A program made the position numbers and the translations under genes. The notes under the pieces are model-generated. The model did not search any database, was not told where the DNA came from, and saw nothing but the letters and a program-made list of their open reading frames with translations. Below are positions 2,782 through 49,041 of a DNA stretch of 64,000 bases, piece by piece. Every line of letters starts with the position of its first letter. The stretch's first letter is position 1. The stretch is taken from assembly GCA_964486045.1 (NCBI GenBank), contig CAZALK010000013.1, positions 46,841-110,840 of the forward strand, given 5' to 3'. This DNA comes from an uncultured archaeon. GTDB taxonomy: Archaea; Asgardarchaeota; Lokiarchaeia; Sigyniarchaeales; SOKP01.

Positions 2782-3219
2782 GTGGTCAAAGTGCCAAAAG
2801 GACTTTACGCAGCGAGGAAGCTTCAAGCTATTCGGAAAAAATATCGATGGTCAAAAACTAAATATAAAAGAAGAAAACTCAAATTAAAACAAAAAGTAGA
2901 CCCTTTAGAAGGAAGTTGCCAAGCTCTCGGAATTGTTCTTCAAAAAGTTGGACGAGAAAGCAAACAACCTAATTCTGCGATCCGAAAATGTGTAAGAATT
3001 CAACTTAAAAAAAATGGGAAAGGTGTGACAGCGTTCTTACCTGGTGACGGTGCTCTAAATTTTATAGAAGAGCATGATCGGGTTATCGTTGAAGGAATCG
3101 GGGGAGCAAAAGGGAGAAGTATCGGAGACCTTCCAGGAGTCCGTTATAGAGTAGTGAAAGTAAACGGTGTTTCCCTTGAAGCATTAATCTCAGGAAAGAA
3201 AGAAAAACCATTGCGATAA
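2782..3219 (+). CDS. rps12: 30S ribosomal protein S12 (uS12)
   Basis: [28 protein letters not shown]; GTG start. Confidence 0.98.
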
Positions 3220-3236: not shown

Positions 3237-3854
3237 ATGAGTAAGATAAAGAAGGATATAAAACTTTTCAATAAATTTTCTTTTAAAAACATCGAAATTA
3301 TGGATCCAACCCTAGATAATTATATTAACTTAAAACCTATTATAATCCCTCATTCTGCGGGAAGACATGAACATAAAAGGTTTTGGAAATCTACCAAGGT
3401 GTCTGTACTTGAACGATTTGCTAATAGATTACTTTCTCCTGGGTTTATTGGTAGTCGAATTAAGGGTCATAAAAGTTCCTATCATTCCGGTAAGAAAGGA
3501 AAATTATTGGGATGTATGAAAAGTGCTTTTATTTTAATGGAATTAATCACAGGAGAAAATCCGATTCAGATTATAGTAGATGCAATTGTTAATACTGCAC
3601 CTAGAGAAGAAACTACCAAAATCGCTATGGGTGGGATAAGTTATGCGTCAGCAGTGGATATCGCGCCCCAGCGACGAGTTGACTTGGCCTTGAAGTATCT
3701 GGTTCAAGCTATTGGAGCAAGGTCGCATTCTAATGAAAAATTATTTGAAGAAAATCTAGCTCAAGAACTAATCTTAGCAGCAAAAAATAGTCAAGAATCT
3801 CGCGCGGTAAAGCGAAAGGATGAAATAGAAAGAATTGCAGTATCTGCTCGTTAA
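3237..3854 (+). CDS. rps7: 30S ribosomal protein S7 (uS7)
   Basis: PHSAGRH, NTAPREE, VDIAPQRRVDLAL, KDEIERIAVSAR. Confidence 0.98.
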   Translation: MSKIKKDIKLFNKFSFKNIEIMDPTLDNYINLKPIIIPHSAGRHEHKRFWKSTKVSVLERFANRLLSPGFIGSRIKGHKSSYHSGKKGKLLGCMKSAFILMELITGENPIQIIVDAIVNTAPREETTKIAMGGISYASAVDIAPQRRVDLALKYLVQAIGARSHSNEKLFEENLAQELILAAKNSQESRAVKRKDEIERIAVSAR

Positions 3855-4120
3855 TTAATCCCTGACTCCTTAAGCATCTATCATTTCAATTGGTTCAAAC
3901 AAGCAAGGTGAAATTGTAGACAAACCCTAGACAAAAAATATAAGATAACAATGGGGGTGATCTCCTTCGAGCTTTATAGAAATTTCCCAAAAAATAGAGT
4001 TTCCAAGCGATTTTTTTTCTTAAACCTTATATATTAAAAAAATTGGGTAAATTCTGATGAAATTTACTAAAAAATCAAAGCTAAAATAACCAATTGAAAT
4101 GTTAAAATAAAAAAGCTTAA

Positions 4121-4576
4121 TTAAATACCAAACTCTTCTTTTACCCATTCACGAGTTACGGGATCGTCAAAATCTTCATGAGTCATTTCATCATAGCGAC
4201 CAATCTTAAAACAATCAGTACATACCCATGACTCCAACCAGGGCACCCATACGAGATCAAGGTCAATCGGTCGATCCCTGGGGTTAAATCCGTGCTTTTT
4301 TGCCTCCTGAAAACTAATACAACCGGCCCCACAACCACATTGTAAAGTTGATTTGTAATAAGCACGATCAAGGTCTTTCCATTTTTCACCTAATTGTATT
4401 TTTCTCTTTTGTTGAGAGGGAGTCAAAATCCTTTTATATTTGTATAAATAATAAATTTTATCTAGCTTACGGAGTTCTTTTTTCACAGCTAATTTTAAGA
4501 TTATCCTGAGATTGTCTCGTACTCGTCTTAAACTTGGTGTTTTTAATGTAACTTTACGGATTTTTTTCGATCTCAT
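4121..4576 (-). CDS. Hypothetical Cys-rich (possibly Zn-binding) protein, cargo of the rps7 insertion
   Basis: Likely ATG at 4576 (MRSKK...); CGCGAGC and WVCTDC motifs. Confidence 0.65.
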   Translation of the reverse strand: MRSKKIRKVTLKTPSLRRVRDNLRIILKLAVKKELRKLDKIYYLYKYKRILTPSQQKRKIQLGEKWKDLDRAYYKSTLQCGCGAGCISFQEAKKHGFNPRDRPIDLDLVWVPWLESWVCTDCFKIGRYDEMTHEDFDDPVTREWVKEEFGI

Positions 4577-4641
4577 TAATATTATATTGCTGCTTTTAGT
4601 CTTTATATTTTTGGACTCTAAAAAATTAATGAATAAAAAAA

Positions 4642-5008
4642 TTAAACAATTGGATAAATATTTTCCCGCAAATAAGTGCTTAAAAACCACTGCCAGAACT
4701 TATCTCTCTTTCTTTCATCGAGAAATAGTTTATCGTCCATTGGTATTTTACCATTCAAGAACAACTTAAAATCTTCTTCAATTGGTAAATATCTAAATTT
4801 ATAGAAATTACTATATCCTTCTTTTGTATCTCGGAAAAATGCTTCATATCCATCTTTCTTCACCGTAAACCATCTCTTAATCCAATTCTCAATAATCTCT
4901 TTGTCTAAATCATCCCATATTTTTACGTCATTTCCATCTATTTGTACCGTCTTGCCTTGAAATTCATTTAAGAGGGTAGAATGATAGTTTTCGATGAATG
5001 GAGATTGG
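4642..5008 (-). pseudogene. 5'-truncated hypothetical gene
   Basis: The frame of the 4642..4863 ORF stays open (QSPFIENYHSTLLNEFQGKTVQIDGNDVKIWDD...) up to the rps7 repeat boundary with no ATG; it closes at a stop inside the repeat (5017-5019). Confidence 0.6.
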
Positions 5009-5110
5009 AATCTAGCTCAAGAACTAATCTTAGCAGCAAAAAATAGTCAAGAATCTCGGGCAGTAAAACGAAAAGATGAAATAGAGAGAATAGCCGTATC
5101 AGCTAGATGA
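5009..5110 (+). pseudogene. Orphan second copy of the last 33 codons of rps7
   Basis: Translates NLAQELILAAKNSQESRAVKRKDEIERIAVSAR*, identical to the S7 C-terminus. Confidence 0.95.
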
Positions 5111-5114
5111 GATG

Positions 5115-5129
5115 TTTTTTATTTTTTTT
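5115..5129 (+). terminator. Oligo-T tract, probable native rps7 terminator
   Basis: TTTTTTATTTTTTTT immediately after the second rps7 3' end. Confidence 0.5.
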
Positions 5130-31044: not shown

Positions 31045-34000
31045 ATGGTAAATATTTTCGGTTCACTTAGAAACTTCCGTGATCGCATCAGAACATCTAT
31101 AAGCATAAAGACTCGAAATGTTTTATTCTTTGTAGCAATTTTTCTTGTTGTATTTTTAGCTATTTTATTAAGACTTAGCCCAATTTTTAGAGGAACTCGG
31201 TTAATTAAAGCTTTTGATCCTTGGATTCAATGGTATAACTCGGAGTACCTATCAACACACACATTATATGAGTATTTCAATTGGCAGGATTTAAAGAGTT
31301 GGTATCCTGGGGGCTTTTATCGTGGAAGTTTGCGTCCTGGTCTAACTTTTACAGTCGTTACTATCTTCAATGTTGTTAACTTTTTTGGGCTACAAATTTC
31401 GTTATATGATATCTGCTATTTTTTCCCAGCAATTATGGGAGGTATTACAGTACTTTTGATTTATTATTTAGGAAAAGAAATGAAAGATCGCGGTACCGGA
31501 TTGATTGCTGCGTTCTTTTTAGCTTTTAATCCCGGATATATGCAACGTACCATGGCAGGATTTTTTGATAATGAAACAATTGGAGTATTTGCATCTTTAT
31601 TGACTTTCTTTTTTCTCCTAAAGGCATTGAAAACAGGTAAATTTTTCTTCGCTATTTTAGGTGGTCTTGCCCTAGGGTATTTATCTCTAAGTTGGGGTGG
31701 TTACCAATTTGTTTACTTAATTATTCCTATACTTTGTATCATTCTGATTCTCATTGATAAATATAATCATAATGTTTTAATTACTTATGCTGTAATTGAG
31801 GGAACTGGGTTATTGATATTCTCTTTGTATAAAAGTTTTCGTGTTGGTACTTTGTTCTCGGATTTAGAAATCGGGGGAATTTTTCTATTTACCATTATTT
31901 TAGTAATATTTCATATAATTCAGTCAAAGAGAAAAGATCACCCCAATTTATATAAAAACCTTATAAATGGTGTAAAGTGGGCTATAATTCCAGCAATAGT
32001 AATCGTTGCAATGATTATTTATGTTGCTCCTGATCTTATTCCTTTTGGTTTTGGTGCACGATTTCAAACTATTCTTAATCCTTTATTTCGTGAAAACATA
32101 AGCTTGGTCGCCTCTGTTGCAGAACAAATGCCGAGTCCGTGGGCTGTTTTCTACTATAATACACTAATTCCATTGATATTAACCCCTCTAGGAATTTATT
32201 TCTGTTTTAAACTTTTAAATGCTCCGGAGATATTATTAATGGCGTTTGTGCTCTTAATGTTTTATTTTACAGGAAGTATGATCCGGATTATCTTAATATT
32301 TTCCCCTGCAGTTTCTTTAATGGGCGCTTATGGATTAGTAAGTATACTTAACATTTTTGGGAGTTTTTTAGGAGAAAGAAGAGAGGGTGTTAGTAGAAAA
32401 CGTAAAAGACAATTAAAAGGAACGGTGGGGAATTCTGAAGTACTTGCTTTATTTATGATTGTCGGTTTTTTAGGAGTTGCCCAAGTCGTTCATGCAACAA
32501 ACATTTCAATAAATCAATTTTCCTTTACTCAGATTAATCCTGCGGGAGTTGTTCATGATTGGGAGGAAGTTCTGATATGGATGAGATCTAACTTACAAGG
32601 TACTGATGTTGTAGTGTCTTGGTGGGATTATGGTTATTGGCTTACCCCAATTGGCAATGTGACGACAGTAAATGATAACGCTACAATGAATCATACCAGA
32701 ATAGGTTTAACAGGTATGGCTCTAATGCAAACCGACGAGATATACAGTGCAAAAGCATTTAAAATGTTAGGTGCAGAATATGTTTTAGTCTATTTTGGTT
32801 TAATGATTACCGGCTTAGGTGGAGATGAAGGAAAATGGCCTTGGATGGTAAGGATTTGTAACGATAATTATGCACAATACAAAAAGTTAGGTATGGAAGA
32901 AGACAATTGGGAAGAAAATTCTGTATTTAAAGAAAGTGACTATCAAGATCTAACTACTGGAAGAATGGGTGAAAAATGGTTCCAGAGCCAATTAATTAGA
33001 TTGATGTTTTTTGGTGTACCAACAGATCCAAATGCCCTCGAACAAAACGATATTCGACTAACTTATGCTAATAAGATTAATAGCGACGTTACTCAAGGGG
33101 GTCAAGTATGGAAAGATTTTATTCCTAATAACGGTGCTTATGATTTCAATATATTTATACCAACCTACTTCTCTAATATGGGATTAGTTAAATTGTATAG
33201 AATAGATTATACTGTTTTAGAATCTAATTTCTTGATCCAAGATGCAAAAATATTTGATAATGGTTATGCAGTGTTCAACCTTCGAAATACAGGGACAAAG
33301 GACTTATTAATTAAAAATGTTAAGGTCAATGGAATAGATTACGATTTTAGTATGGGAGAGAGTGAAATAACGCATTTAGTAGAAGATGGTGATTCAGATA
33401 TGGTATGGGTTGATATGAAATCACAGGGAACACCTTTTCAAGAGGACGATGTTGTAGAAATTAGTGTTACCGCTGAATCCGAGGGATTAGGAGGAAAACC
33501 GTATGAATTTTCGAACAGCACAAGCAATTTCTTCGTTAAAAAAGCAGAACAAGGAGAGTTAAAAATTAATAAGAGAAATAGTAAAGTAATTCAAAAAAAT
33601 CCTACAGAGACTGAATTGTTTCTTGAAGTAGAAAATGTAGGGAATACAACTGAAATTCTTGATAGGTTTTACCTTAATGATGACATAGAAGAAAATAGAA
33701 TTGATCCAACAGATATTGAATATCTAATCGGATCATCTATATTAAATCCCGGAGATTTAGCTAGTATTCATATATCTAATGTGACTACTAACTTTTACCC
33801 AATTAGAACATACAATAAGGTTGGAGTAGCAACCCCAAATGAAATAAGAGATGAGATGTTATTTTCATCCACTAAGGAAAATTATTCTTTATCTGTCTTA
33901 AGTGATGAGAGAATTCTATCACCTGAGGTTTTAGCATCCATTGATAGTAACTACCGAAAACACATCCCCATTAACCTCAATATGACTCATGCCTATACTT

Positions 34001-45087: not shown

Positions 45088-47370
45088 ATGGTTAAAGTAA
45101 AGAACCCAGATGAGATAGTAAAGCTCGTAACTTCCGGATCTTATGAGAGAAAGAGAATTTTCAGTATAACCGCGCATTTTTAATAAGGTTTCCTTATTAT
45201 AGCGTAAATTGATCACGGGAAAACAACTGCTACTGATTATCTTCTACGTAGAGCAGGGCTCATGCGGCCAGAAGATGCTGGTCAACTTCAAATGACTGAC
45301 AGCGACGAGGAAGAACAGGCACGTGGGATTACCATTTTTACAAGTGTAGTTTTACTTGCATTCAATGACTCTAGAAAACCAGATGACACTGAACCTTATG
45401 TTATTCAATTAAATGATACTCCAGGTCATATTAGTTTTACCGGGGAGGTATCACGAGCTCTAAGAGGAAGCGATGGTGCAATAATATTGGTCGATGCTCT
45501 TGAAGGAGTAATGACCCAGACAGAAACTAATATTCGTTTATCCGTTGGTGAAGAATTCTGTAAACCAGTTCTATTCATTAATAAAGTTGACCGACTTATT
45601 AGTGAGCTTAAGTTAAGTCCTCAAGATACTTTTGCTAAAATAGATAAAATTACACGCGAAATTAATGAACTTATAAGAAAAGTGAGACCTGAGGGTTCGG
45701 GTTGGACCATTGATTTTGCTAAAAATTCAGTTGCAGTTGGTTCAGCAAAACATGGATGGGGTTTTACATATGAGATTTTAGTTGAAAAAAAAATGAAACC
45801 TCAAGATGTTTTCGCAAAATATACTGAAGGTGACATTCAGTGGTTAAGAGATAATTTACCTTTAGATGAGCCTCTGTTAAGGATGATCGTAGACCATCTT
45901 CCAGATCCTATTAGTGCTGCTAAATATAGAATACCTCATATCTGGGGAGGAGACCTAAGTTCTGAACTTGGACAATCTCTCGTGAAGAGTGATCCAAATG
46001 GGCCTCTCTACGGAATGATAACTAAGATTTTCTTAGACCCAAAAAGGAATTATCAAGCTACTCTTATCGGTCGTGTTTTTTCGGGTACGTTCAACCAAAC
46101 AGATTCAATTTATCTAATTAATAGCGATTCAAGCAACCGTGTGAAGCGGCTTGGAGTTATGGAGATTACTGATCTCTTAGATATTCCCCGGATTCCGGCA
46201 GGAAATTTATTTGCATTATTTGGTTTTGTATGCCCGGCTGGTGAAACATTTATGTTGACAAGTGAGGTTCCTAAAGATAAAGAAGAGAGGAAAAAGCTTC
46301 ACCCCTTCGAGAAAATTAATTATGCGTGCGAGGCTGTGGTTTCGCGGAGTATTAAACCTAAGGACCATCATCTCATTGATAAATTAGATGATGTAGTCGG
46401 AAAATGGCTTAAAGCGAACCCTGAAGCTGAATATCGAAGAGATGAAGAATCTGGTGAATTTGTGCTCTCTGGAATAGACCCTCTCCAAATTGAAATCCTG
46501 ACAAAGAGAATCAACATCCAAGTACCAATTGACATTGGGGAACCAATTATTATTTATAGGGAAAAAATTACGAAAAAAAGTCCGGAATATCATACAAAAT
46601 CTGCGAACACTCACAATCGTATAGTGTTATACATTGAACCTTTAGACGAAACAACAGAAAAGCTAATCGAAACCGGTAAAATTAATGATTTACAAAATGA
46701 CAAGGATAGAGCTAAAATTCTTAGGGAAGACGCAGATTGGGATGCTAAGGAAGCAAGGCGAATTGTTGATGTATATCAAGGAAGTCTCCTTGTCAATGGT
46801 ACTTCGGGATTACAGAGATTTGATCGCGTGAAGTCCTATTTGAGTGCTGCTTTTAGAGATTGGCTTGGTAATTGTATAATAGCAAAAGAACCCGCTACAG
46901 GAGTAAAAGCTGTATTTACAGATTTAGTCATCCATGAAGACCCAAGACATACGCAATATGGCCAGATTGCGGGAATGTTTTTCTCAGCTTTATCACTTGC
47001 GATGTTGGAAGCAGATTCTCATCTCTTTGAGCCAGTCCAGAAAATTGATGTTAAAACACCTCAAGGAACAGAAGGAGGGGTAACAGCCATTATCTCTAAG
47101 CGTCGAGGGAGGATAACTAATGTTATTCCTGAAGGTGAATACGTTAGGATCAAAGGTCAGATTCCTGCTGCCGAGGTAATTGGCATTGCAGACGATATCC
47201 GAGGCTCAACGCAAGGGAGGGCTTTTTTTGGATACGAATTTAAAGGCTTCGAGAAGGTTCCTGCTTCTACTGAAGAAGATCTCATCATGGAAATCCGCAA
47301 ACGCAAAGGACTGCCCCTAGAAATGCCTAATAGAAGGAGTTGGGAGCGTTTTATTTATAAACGTTCTTGA
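45088..47370 (+). CDS. fusA: Elongation factor 2; join(45088..45177,45208..47370), 750 aa after removal of the 30-nt insert
   Basis: Exon 1 MVKVKNPDEIVKLVTSGSYERKRIFSITAH + exon 2 IDHGKTTATDYLLRRAGLMRP...; EQARGITI, DTPGH, NKVD; domain IV HEDPRH; IRKRKGL. Confidence 0.93.
45178..45207 (+). other. Putative bulge-helix-bulge mRNA intron in EF-2
   Basis: 30 nt with 3 in-frame TAA. Central helix GCGC(45172-75)/GCGU(45202-05); bulges AU^U and AA^A, whose canonical cut positions equal the junctions that restore AHIDHGKTT; 8-bp hairpin UAAUAAGG/CCUUAUUA. Confidence 0.85.
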
Positions 47371-47780
47371 TGTTTCAAATTTATTGGAGTTTGGATAATT
47401 TGCTACAAGATGATTTTTCAGATATATTTTTACATCATATTCATGAAATTACTTGGAGTATGGAGGAAGAGGAACTTGGTGCAATTACGAGGGGATCTCA
47501 CTATGATTTATCCCATAGACGACGGATAGGTAGAATTGACTTATTCTCAGGGAGGAATAATTATAAACGCCACCAACGTTATTTTGAAGAGGTAAAAGCT
47601 TCACTAAATCCAGGTAGGCCTACAATACCCCCCGGTTGGACTCAAGATCAATTTGACACGTATTTAGATAGTCGTCAGTTTTATTATACCCATGGTGAGA
47701 GAAAGTGGTTTTTGGAATATTTCGGAGATTTCTACAGATTGTTTCAAAATAAAAAATTTTGGAATACTAAAAAATTATAA
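47367..47780 (+). CDS. Hypothetical protein (possibly a fragment), cargo of the EF-2 insertion
   Basis: 137-aa ORF overlapping the EF-2 stop; no recognised motif. Confidence 0.45.
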   Translation: MMFQIYWSLDNLLQDDFSDIFLHHIHEITWSMEEEELGAITRGSHYDLSHRRRIGRIDLFSGRNNYKRHQRYFEEVKASLNPGRPTIPPGWTQDQFDTYLDSRQFYYTHGERKWFLEYFGDFYRLFQNKKFWNTKKL

Positions 47781-47799
47781 TCGTTTAGGATATTTAGGT

Positions 47800-48684
47800 C
47801 TAAAATTGGTTTAATTGGGTTTGATTTTTATACCCACTAGAATAAATTTCTTTAATTTTATTTAGGACATCTACATCAAACATTTTTGGTTTATTTATTC
47901 TTAAGTTAATTTCTTTTAAGAATTGGTCTTTAATATGCTGCTCTCCCTTATGAACTTTTTTTATAAAAGGTATAACAAAATTAATTAAGATTGATTTATT
48001 TTTAAATAAAAAGTTTAGTTCATGTAGATTGTCAATAAAGCTAAAGAATCCCTCTACAGTTTCTTTACCAACTTTTTTGATTTTAATCCTATAAATTTTA
48101 GCGTAAAGTAACAATTCAATTTTTTTCAATTCACTTAACATATTAGATGCAATATATTTTTTTATACTATCAAAAGTCTGAGAATTGAGATTTGAGTTTT
48201 CTATTACTATCTTTAACTCTTCTGCATTTAAGATATCCAAGTAACCCTCATTTAACAAGAATTCCATAGTTTGAAAATGATTACTAGCAAATCTTTTGGC
48301 TATTTCTTCTTTAAGAATTCTTTTTGCTAAAGAATCTCCGATCCTCGTTAATTCATTTAATAGGGGAAAGGCTATAGTTCTATGTAATAATCGAGAGTTA
48401 TAGTTATTTTCATTCCATACTTGTAGATTTGAGCAATGCCCCCAAAATTCAATTTCTGGCGGAACATATCCCGTTTCTTCAATTCTTTGATTTTCCATTC
48501 TTTCTGATACTTCATCAACAGAATTAATTTCATTTACGCTTTTTGCTTCAATAATAGGGAAATTTAGCAATAAATATTTGCATTGTAAGAACTCCTTATT
48601 TCTAATATAGAGATTTGTTTTATTTTCTTCTAACTTGAGGGTTATATAATTATTAACCTTGAATTCTTTCGTTCTCTTCAACAA
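47800..48684 (-). CDS. Hypothetical protein of a Lokiarchaeia-type expanded family, cargo of the EF-2 insertion
   Basis: KEFKVNNYITLKLE...EFWGHCSNLQVW.EN.YNSRLLHR.IAFPLL..L...GD..AK...KEEIAKRF, recalled as a recurrent Loki N-terminal domain. Confidence 0.7.
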   Translation of the reverse strand: MLKRTKEFKVNNYITLKLEENKTNLYIRNKEFLQCKYLLLNFPIIEAKSVNEINSVDEVSERMENQRIEETGYVPPEIEFWGHCSNLQVWNENNYNSRLLHRTIAFPLLNELTRIGDSLAKRILKEEIAKRFASNHFQTMEFLLNEGYLDILNAEELKIVIENSNLNSQTFDSIKKYIASNMLSELKKIELLLYAKIYRIKIKKVGKETVEGFFSFIDNLHELNFLFKNKSILINFVIPFIKKVHKGEQHIKDQFLKEINLRINKPKMFDVDVLNKIKEIYSSGYKNQTQLNQF

Positions 48685-48855
48685 TTTTCACCCTTATATT
48701 TTAAAGATAGAAGATTTTACTATTTAAATGTCACCCGTTTTCAAGTTTTTAAGTAAAGAAGTTAATTCGCAACCTAAGGCACCAGACTCTTTATAAGAGG
48801 AATGATCCCTAAGAAATATAGACTTCGATTTAGACAAGTTTTAACAAACATAGCA

Positions 48856-48935
48856 GTTACCGCAATCATAGCAAAGCGTCGCTGGAAATGCCTAATAGAA
48901 GGAGTTGGGAGCGTTTTATTTATAAAAGATCATAA
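48856..48935 (+). pseudogene. Internally deleted orphan copy of the EF-2 3' region
   Basis: 48856-48882 encodes VTAIIAKRR (EF-2 47080-47106: VTAIISKRR), joined to LEMPNRRSWERFIYKRS*; T-tract follows at 48938-48944. Confidence 0.85.
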
Positions 48936-49041
48936 AATTTTTTTAATTATTTTTATCAAACATTACAATAATAAGTATAATACATGTAAAACTAGTTATT
49001 ACTAAGATTTAAAAAACTAAATGATCCCTAAGAGAAACTAC

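Follow-up and report, generated by a model that had tools for sequence, protein, structure and literature searches.

The 3' end of the ribosomal protein gene rps7 was found to be duplicated around a small cassette in the window, i.e. the whole stretch of 64,000 nucleotides analysed from the genome of an uncultured archaeon of the Lokiarchaeia, and rps7 is now a hybrid gene which consists of the host gene to about position 3802 and of an incoming tail thereafter. The origin of this scar is explained, with somewhat more confidence than doubt, by an integrase-free, homology-anchored recombination that left an orphan toxin-tip/immunity cassette behind. The genome of the window was designated G000 and its contigs were given C numbers, and the other G and L labels denote the compared genomes and loci, respectively.

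The duplication was re-verified by direct comparison. Positions 5009-5058 are an exact copy of 3753-3802 (50 nt), with flanking bases that are unlike on both sides. The 52 nt after the repeat contain 11 mismatches in 9 codons between the two copies, all of them silent, and both tails encode the peptide RAVKRKDEIERIAVSAR followed by a stop, with CGT TAA versus AGA TGA as the last codon and the stop. No further copy of the repeat was found in the 5.2-Mb genome, and a T-tract is present 3' of the downstream copy only. Between the repeat copies lies a cassette of 1,154 bp (the spacer, ORF A and the ORF B stump); its content was seen to be the same as that described in an earlier note on this DNA, namely a Cys-rich ORF and a gene cut at the repeat, without an integrase. 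The features and their coordinates are collected in Table 1. No homolog of the spacer at 3855-4120 was found in the loci retrieved.

Table 1. Features of the rps7 end and of the inserted cassette (positions in the window).
Feature	Coordinates	Strand	Remark
rps7 (uS7), 205 aa	3237..3854	+	Pfam PF00177, E 1.8e-34
50-bp core copy 1, host type	3753..3802	+	exact match to 5009-5058
Incoming rps7 tail, apparently of related-species origin	3803..3854	+	ends CGT TAA TTAAT
Non-coding spacer, 266 bp	3855..4120	none	arrived with the cassette
ORF A, 151 aa, intact	4121..4576	-	probable immunity protein
BRE/TATA-like motif	4602..4616	-	26 nt before the ORF A start
ORF B remnant, last 121 codons	4642..5008	-	no start; cut at the repeat
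50-bp core copy 2	5009..5058	+	abuts the cut in ORF B
Displaced native rps7 tail	5059..5110	+	92% alike to G013; kept in the empty-site strain
T-tract, probable native terminator	5115..5129	+	followed by DNA homologous to the G013 empty site

In the probable source run, the contig depth of the cargo (252-265) was like that of the flanks (259-276), and the same layout was present in five other independent assemblies. In a strain 95-99% alike, which came from another sample of the same study, 3752 was joined to 5009, i.e. the site was empty and the downstream tail was kept. The closest empty-site genome (G013) matched the downstream tail at 92% and the DNA 3' of the tail at 73%. The earlier note had taken the downstream copy as the displaced native end and rps7 as using an incoming 3' end, and both the empty-site strain and the match to G013 bear this out; besides this near-identical strain, 48 empty-site loci of the genus were found. 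Taken by themselves, the k=31 contigs fit either an integrated cassette or an empty site plus a circle, and integration rests on the assembly and the equal depth; no go-back (circular) joint was listed among the contigs, which were the material covered, of the runs examined. Runs X3 and X4 (a small share) were left out of the cassette evidence. Core-core recombination in the empty strain would leave an identical sequence, so that gain and loss are told apart by inference, and we infer that the insertion in the window is recent and a gain rather than a loss. The ORF B stump contains neither stops nor frameshifts, which fits a young cut. Within rps7, a 28-bp patch at 3599-3626 (+) showed 7 silent differences between the window and the empty-site strain; it reads as a second recombination patch and suggests that the rps7 end region recombines in patches.

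For the origin of the recoded tail, the 48 empty-site loci of the genus served as a between-species control. The last 17 residues are identical in 40 of them, and the median tail distance among them is 10 differences over 52 nt, as compared with 11 between the two tails of the window. Judged by these sequences, the incoming tail is the rps7 end of a related species, and its 11 silent differences represent an ordinary between-species distance. Of the fully synonymous recoding claimed in the earlier note, the silence of all differences stood and the special nature of the recoding did not, a median of 10 being usual between species in this near-invariant peptide; deliberate recoding was ruled out by the same control (48 empty-site loci; 749 pairs). 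Among the 749 genome pairs with at least 9 tail differences, none had a core with at most 1 difference, which argues that the core and the tail differ in origin, the core being host DNA in both copies and the tail foreign. The exact core of G001 measures 135 bp and resembles host DNA (96% to G050), and the native tail is again the downstream one. The end signature CGT TAA TTAAT of the window tail was found only in other cassette-bearing loci; the window, G001, G053 and G044 have it in common in their incoming tails, and it occurs in 0 empty sites, as a pattern that was defined after the fact. The last Arg codon usually ends in A, and nearly all incoming tails depart from this form. No donor was found for the tail, for which the best match was 87%.

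A cassette or a stub was present at rps7 in 6 of 54 genomes of the genus, and of some 25 close A/B loci about 11 are located at rps7, where the cassette occurs in either orientation. In the window, G001, G053, L097, L086 and L089/G144, ORF A, alone or together with B, is bordered by a second, long copy of the rps7 end, and relics without the long copy were seen in G044, G004 (a 21-nt tail stub), G059, L098 and probably L100. Across the rps7 loci, the left boundary of the repeat lies 98, 174 or 234 nt before the last codon and exact identity ends 48, 39 or 27 nt before it, and one junction is common to G001, G053 and G044. In the ORF A tree (151 columns, many open forks), the rps7-linked copies are intermixed with copies behind giant genes and elsewhere, and neither orientation group is one clade in any bootstrap tree. 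In other genera, the rps7 end is duplicated around unrelated cargo. No recombinase was found at or near rps7 in the 50-odd genomes and the metagenome loci read. An intact large island at rps7, for which the earlier note had suggested looking in relatives, was not found in the genomes searched; the assemblies of G004, G081 and G036 break at rps7 and may hide one. What the earlier note had called the attL/attR scar of an element targeting rps7 is supported as an insertion scar recurring at rps7 in relatives and not supported as an integrase att pair, in view of the variable boundaries and orientation, the other gene ends and the lack of a recombinase.

Several observations were made on the genes around rps7. 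In L097 (1-9081), the place of rps12 immediately before rps7 is taken by a giant gene (11,612 aa as called) and its 415-aa partner; in G041 (L130), rps12 is inverted relative to rps7; and in G050 (L147), a non-native LRR-type gene lies upstream of rps12. At the place of rps12 corresponding to 3046-3049 of the window, a 30-31-nt hairpin insert, absent in the window, is present in L103 (G056), in L136 (G043) and in runs X2 and X4. The insert (within FLPG-DG) breaks the frame or adds a stop, and its removal at bulge-helix-bulge-like positions restores PGDG; it varies from strain to strain and may be an mRNA intron of a ribosomal protein gene, a candidate on which no paper was found by a literature search.

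ORF A is a helical hairpin with 5 Cys, of which 4 are conserved, and its dN/dS of 0.11-0.27 indicates purifying selection. It lies directly 3' of every close B with a gap of 65-110 nt, and is usually the surviving part of the cassette. A BRE/TATA-like motif precedes it in 8 of the 8 B-A intergenic regions compared, and ORF A probably has its own promoter. The gene layout suggests that ORF A is probably an immunity protein for B, and the promoter-like motif together with the tendency of ORF A to survive leads to the reading of the window cassette as a putative orphan immunity gene. The fold search with ORF A returned generic helical-hairpin matches only (best Z 9.0, rmsd 2.4, 66 aligned), the matches to a viral fold library had E values of 0.85 or worse, and no relatives were found in viral contigs. 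Searches with ORF A and ORF B against Atlas, PDB sequences and Pfam gave nothing usable; the structure model of ORF B was poor (pLDDT 45), and the prediction of a B and A complex had a median of 0.00 and was counted neither for nor against an interaction.

An HNH-like motif (RHH...H, read by eye) is conserved in B and is missing from the window stump, which has no start; across the loci, the B stumps preceding ORF A are about 41, 68, 121, 233, 294 and 324 aa in length. Elsewhere, B forms the C-terminus of proteins of 708, 934, 1,473, over 3,018 and 5,541 aa, with ORF A always next. This gene layout, with the HNH assignment made by eye, suggests that B would be the nuclease tip of a giant polymorphic-toxin-like protein. 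A constant N-part with variable C-terminal tips was found in the giant parent proteins. In G000, at least six giant frames of up to over 9,498 aa are present on C4, C7, C8, C9, C10, C23, C36 and C37, which have their N-parts in common but differ in their nuclease-like tips; each is located at a contig end, and a beta-helix gene and large multi-HTH genes lie upstream of them. The giants of C4, C7, C8 and C23 are 60-98% identical over thousands of residues and differ in the last 600-900 aa, and each of these tips is followed by a different small gene. The giant of G070 (the longest of the proteins that end in B) is 29-31% alike to those of C9/C10 over about 1,800 aa and diverges near the C-end. 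By eye, HNH-like, GIY-YIG-like or PD-(D/E)xK-like motifs were recognized in the giant tips, and a weak match of the C7 tip to PF13392 (E 0.06) is the sole Pfam support among them. The carriers are archaeal proteins of 5,000-10,000 aa which belong to no Pfam family, and no paper on Lokiarchaeal polymorphic toxins was found in the literature searched.

Distant relatives of B (25-31% identity, RHH motif kept) are free-standing ORFs of 870-880 aa without ORF A. They were seen in 6 genomes, belonging to 2 genera, where a fucose-isomerase-like gene has them at its 3' end; the 3' part of that gene is duplicated in at least 3 of these genomes. An 880-aa Zn-finger/HTH/HNH-like ORF together with a 204-aa gene was located in L213 (4473-9909, G043), L211, L212, L214, L215 and L218, and this pair at the end of the fucose-isomerase-like gene is a candidate homing element.

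Scars of the same kind were found at other genes. The 3' end of a small GTPase gene is duplicated with a 51-bp exact core and then a diverged tail (L037, 5523-6514; G000 C1, about 31520-32510), and its cargo consists of a distant ORF A and a short B-like stump, oriented as in the window. An A/B-family cargo lies between duplicated gene ends with a 29-bp core in G051, and the family is also bracketed by the duplicated ends of an MFS gene, an RHH gene and others. The 3' end of the EF-2 gene is duplicated in the window (47320-48945), with a 42-bp core, a silent tail and a cargo unrelated to A/B, i.e. a 137-aa frame and a 294-aa gene of a family found behind several giant genes and, in G019, likewise at the EF-2 end. 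Cargo unrelated to A/B is bracketed in this manner at many further genes as well. Dozens of unrelated gene ends carry such duplications with no common core, and many of the scars in G000 are without a nuclease.

Five tyrosine recombinases were found in the genome. One of them, in answer to the search suggested in the earlier note, lies inside an old gene-end islet on C23, and none was seen at rps7. This islet of 8.4 kb (C23 51571-60122), which holds the recombinase, is bounded by a 195-bp, 82% alike gene end, and C25 carries a similar-looking recombinase without such a repeat. Elsewhere in G000, C29, which is 26 kb long, has repeats at its two ends, carries virus-like genes as well as a tyrosine recombinase, and is probably a circular element; C41 contains, by eye, a group II intron-like reverse transcriptase and C32 a type I-E-like CRISPR locus; and among C41, C32, C40 and C45, two contigs at 58% GC may be foreign.

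The rps7 scar could have arisen by homology-anchored recombination as follows. The donor would be a related species that already had ORF B and ORF A as a pair immediately behind rps7; its rps7 end would pair with that of the host, and copying or crossover would run on through the donor tail and the cargo. At the far end, a joint not based on homology would then form 50 bp before the switch point, and the doubled core would result from a template switch, gap repair or conversion; alternatively, the core might have been made identical later by gene conversion. Homology to the host is found on one side only, and the abrupt joint on the other side cuts ORF B at 5008; the microhomology at the 5008/5009 joint is at most 1 nt, as judged from homologous B genes rather than from the true donor. 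Since the peptide is near-invariant, the essential rps7 would stay intact, and conserved gene ends would therefore be safe anchors. Homology-anchored illegitimate recombination without an integrase was proposed for Vibrio orphan immunity arrays (PMC5361080). Against this explanation, the standard form of such recombination deletes host DNA, so that a perfect doubled core needs an extra step; the accumulation of close A/B loci at rps7 is not explained by the mechanism itself; and a donor matching the tail was not among the sequences found.

The preference for rps7 would have a cause under a homing-type drive, which shares the repair step with homology-anchored recombination and is a possible, if doubtful, alternative: B would be a site-preferring endonuclease cutting the native rps7 end, donor repair would bring in the cassette and a cut-resistant tail, and the window copy would be a decayed stage with the nuclease lost and the partner kept. 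The strong recurrence of the close A/B family at rps7 and the changed last Arg codon in nearly all incoming tails agree with such a drive, as do the intact, free-standing distant relatives of B at the fucose-isomerase-like gene end, some with a duplicated 3' part, and a layout like that of the mobile endonuclease ORFs of mitochondria (PMC3630166). However, B at rps7 is at most 324 aa and always without the upstream helix-turn-helix region, and the nuclease motif is gone in most rps7 loci while ORF A stays; moreover, close B/A pairs are also found at the tips of giant proteins and at further gene ends, a nuclease is lacking from many similar scars in G000, and rps7 ends elsewhere are duplicated around unrelated cargo. 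A broader and unlikely proposal is that one nuclease family would supply both the tips of giant Asgard toxins and free-standing homing endonucleases, with this sub-family cutting the rps7 end in neighbouring cells and the survivors repairing from a donor with a cut-resistant tail and the immunity gene, i.e. a toxin-coupled gene drive.

It is quite unlikely that the repeats are the attL/attR scar of an integrase element that targeted rps7 with a replacement 3' end and of which the cargo is the rest after an internal deletion. The layout does match that of e14 in icd (PMC13626634) and of elements at rplL, rpsI and rpmG (PMC4701971), the replacement end restores rps7 and displaces the native one, four genomes have incoming tails with a common end signature that no empty site shows, G001, G053 and G044 have one common junction, and a tyrosine recombinase is present in the old islet on C23. 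Nevertheless, neither the cargo nor the vicinity of any rps7 locus read contains a recombinase, which could have been lost by deletion; a fixed core is contradicted by three left boundaries, three end points of identity and two orientations; dozens of unrelated gene ends are duplicated without a common core; and both copies of the core are of host DNA, where the product of an integrase would carry element DNA upstream from the crossover on. A Campbell-type integration of a small circle that looped out of a donor with the rps7 end and the cargo, followed by gene conversion of the core, is very improbable. Exactly such a circle would be yielded by core-core recombination, and G001 and G053, which share the 174-nt boundary yet each have a host-like core, would need a refreshing of this kind; but after a single crossover the downstream core keeps the letters of the donor, conversion would in several separate cases need to extend precisely to the left edge while leaving the tail untouched, and the runs examined, at contig level, gave no go-back joint. 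Finally, an assembly chimera of two strains, the counter-case of the earlier note, or a local duplication that diverged in place is scarcely credible. In its favour, the 50-bp core is spanned by no source-run contig; the flat depth, the five other assemblies with the same layout and the empty-site strain argue against a low-depth chimera, and a drifting non-coding copy would not gain 11 silent changes with none in the core.

In comparison with known systems, the scar is a variant of gene-tail replacement as already known, and the giant family with a constant N-part and variable nuclease tips is undescribed. Polymorphic toxin loci (Rhs, CDI and Vibrio T6SS arrays; PMC5361080) are alike in the constant N-part, the variable C-terminal tips, the small gene after each tip and the cut-off tips with a kept partner gene; their anchor is the toxin or adaptor gene, behind which the orphans pile up, whereas here an essential housekeeping gene offers its end as the anchor and the orphans are scattered over the chromosome. 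In fungal mitochondria, mobile endonuclease ORFs make hybrid genes (Allomyces atp6; Glomus atp6, atp9, cox2 and nad3; PMC3630166), with a foreign C-terminus in frame, the native one downstream, silent differences, a nuclease-related cargo and no integrase, as in the window; the window differs in a stump without the motif, an HNH-like rather than a GIY-YIG/LAGLIDADG type, a kept partner and a remnant that begins with a perfect host core. In e14 in E. coli icd (icdC remnant; PMC13626634) and in streptococcal ICEs at rplL, rpsI and rpmG (PMC4701971), the 3' end is likewise duplicated around the insert and, when the insert is lost, the gene receives a tail that differs by silent changes, but an integrase is encoded and one fixed att site is used (ICE repeats of 12-54 bp), whereas in the window none is encoded and the boundaries vary. 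The Aloposons of Heimdallarchaeia (PMC8813620) are also Asgard islands with giant genes, and are described with tandem 3,000-6,000-aa genes, a MinD/ParA gene and tRNA sites (PMC8813620); these features were unseen around the G000 giants, all of which run off contig ends.

With homology-anchored recombination as the preferred explanation, and in view of the empty-site strain and several independent recurrences of the scar, Lokiarchaeia would acquire small cassettes for which the ends of essential genes serve as anchors; searches centred on integrases or tRNA genes miss this route. The rps7 and EF-2 ends, both of phylogenetic marker genes, are mosaics at the DNA level. The giant family and the scattered orphan partner genes point to probable cell-to-cell warfare in Asgard archaea.
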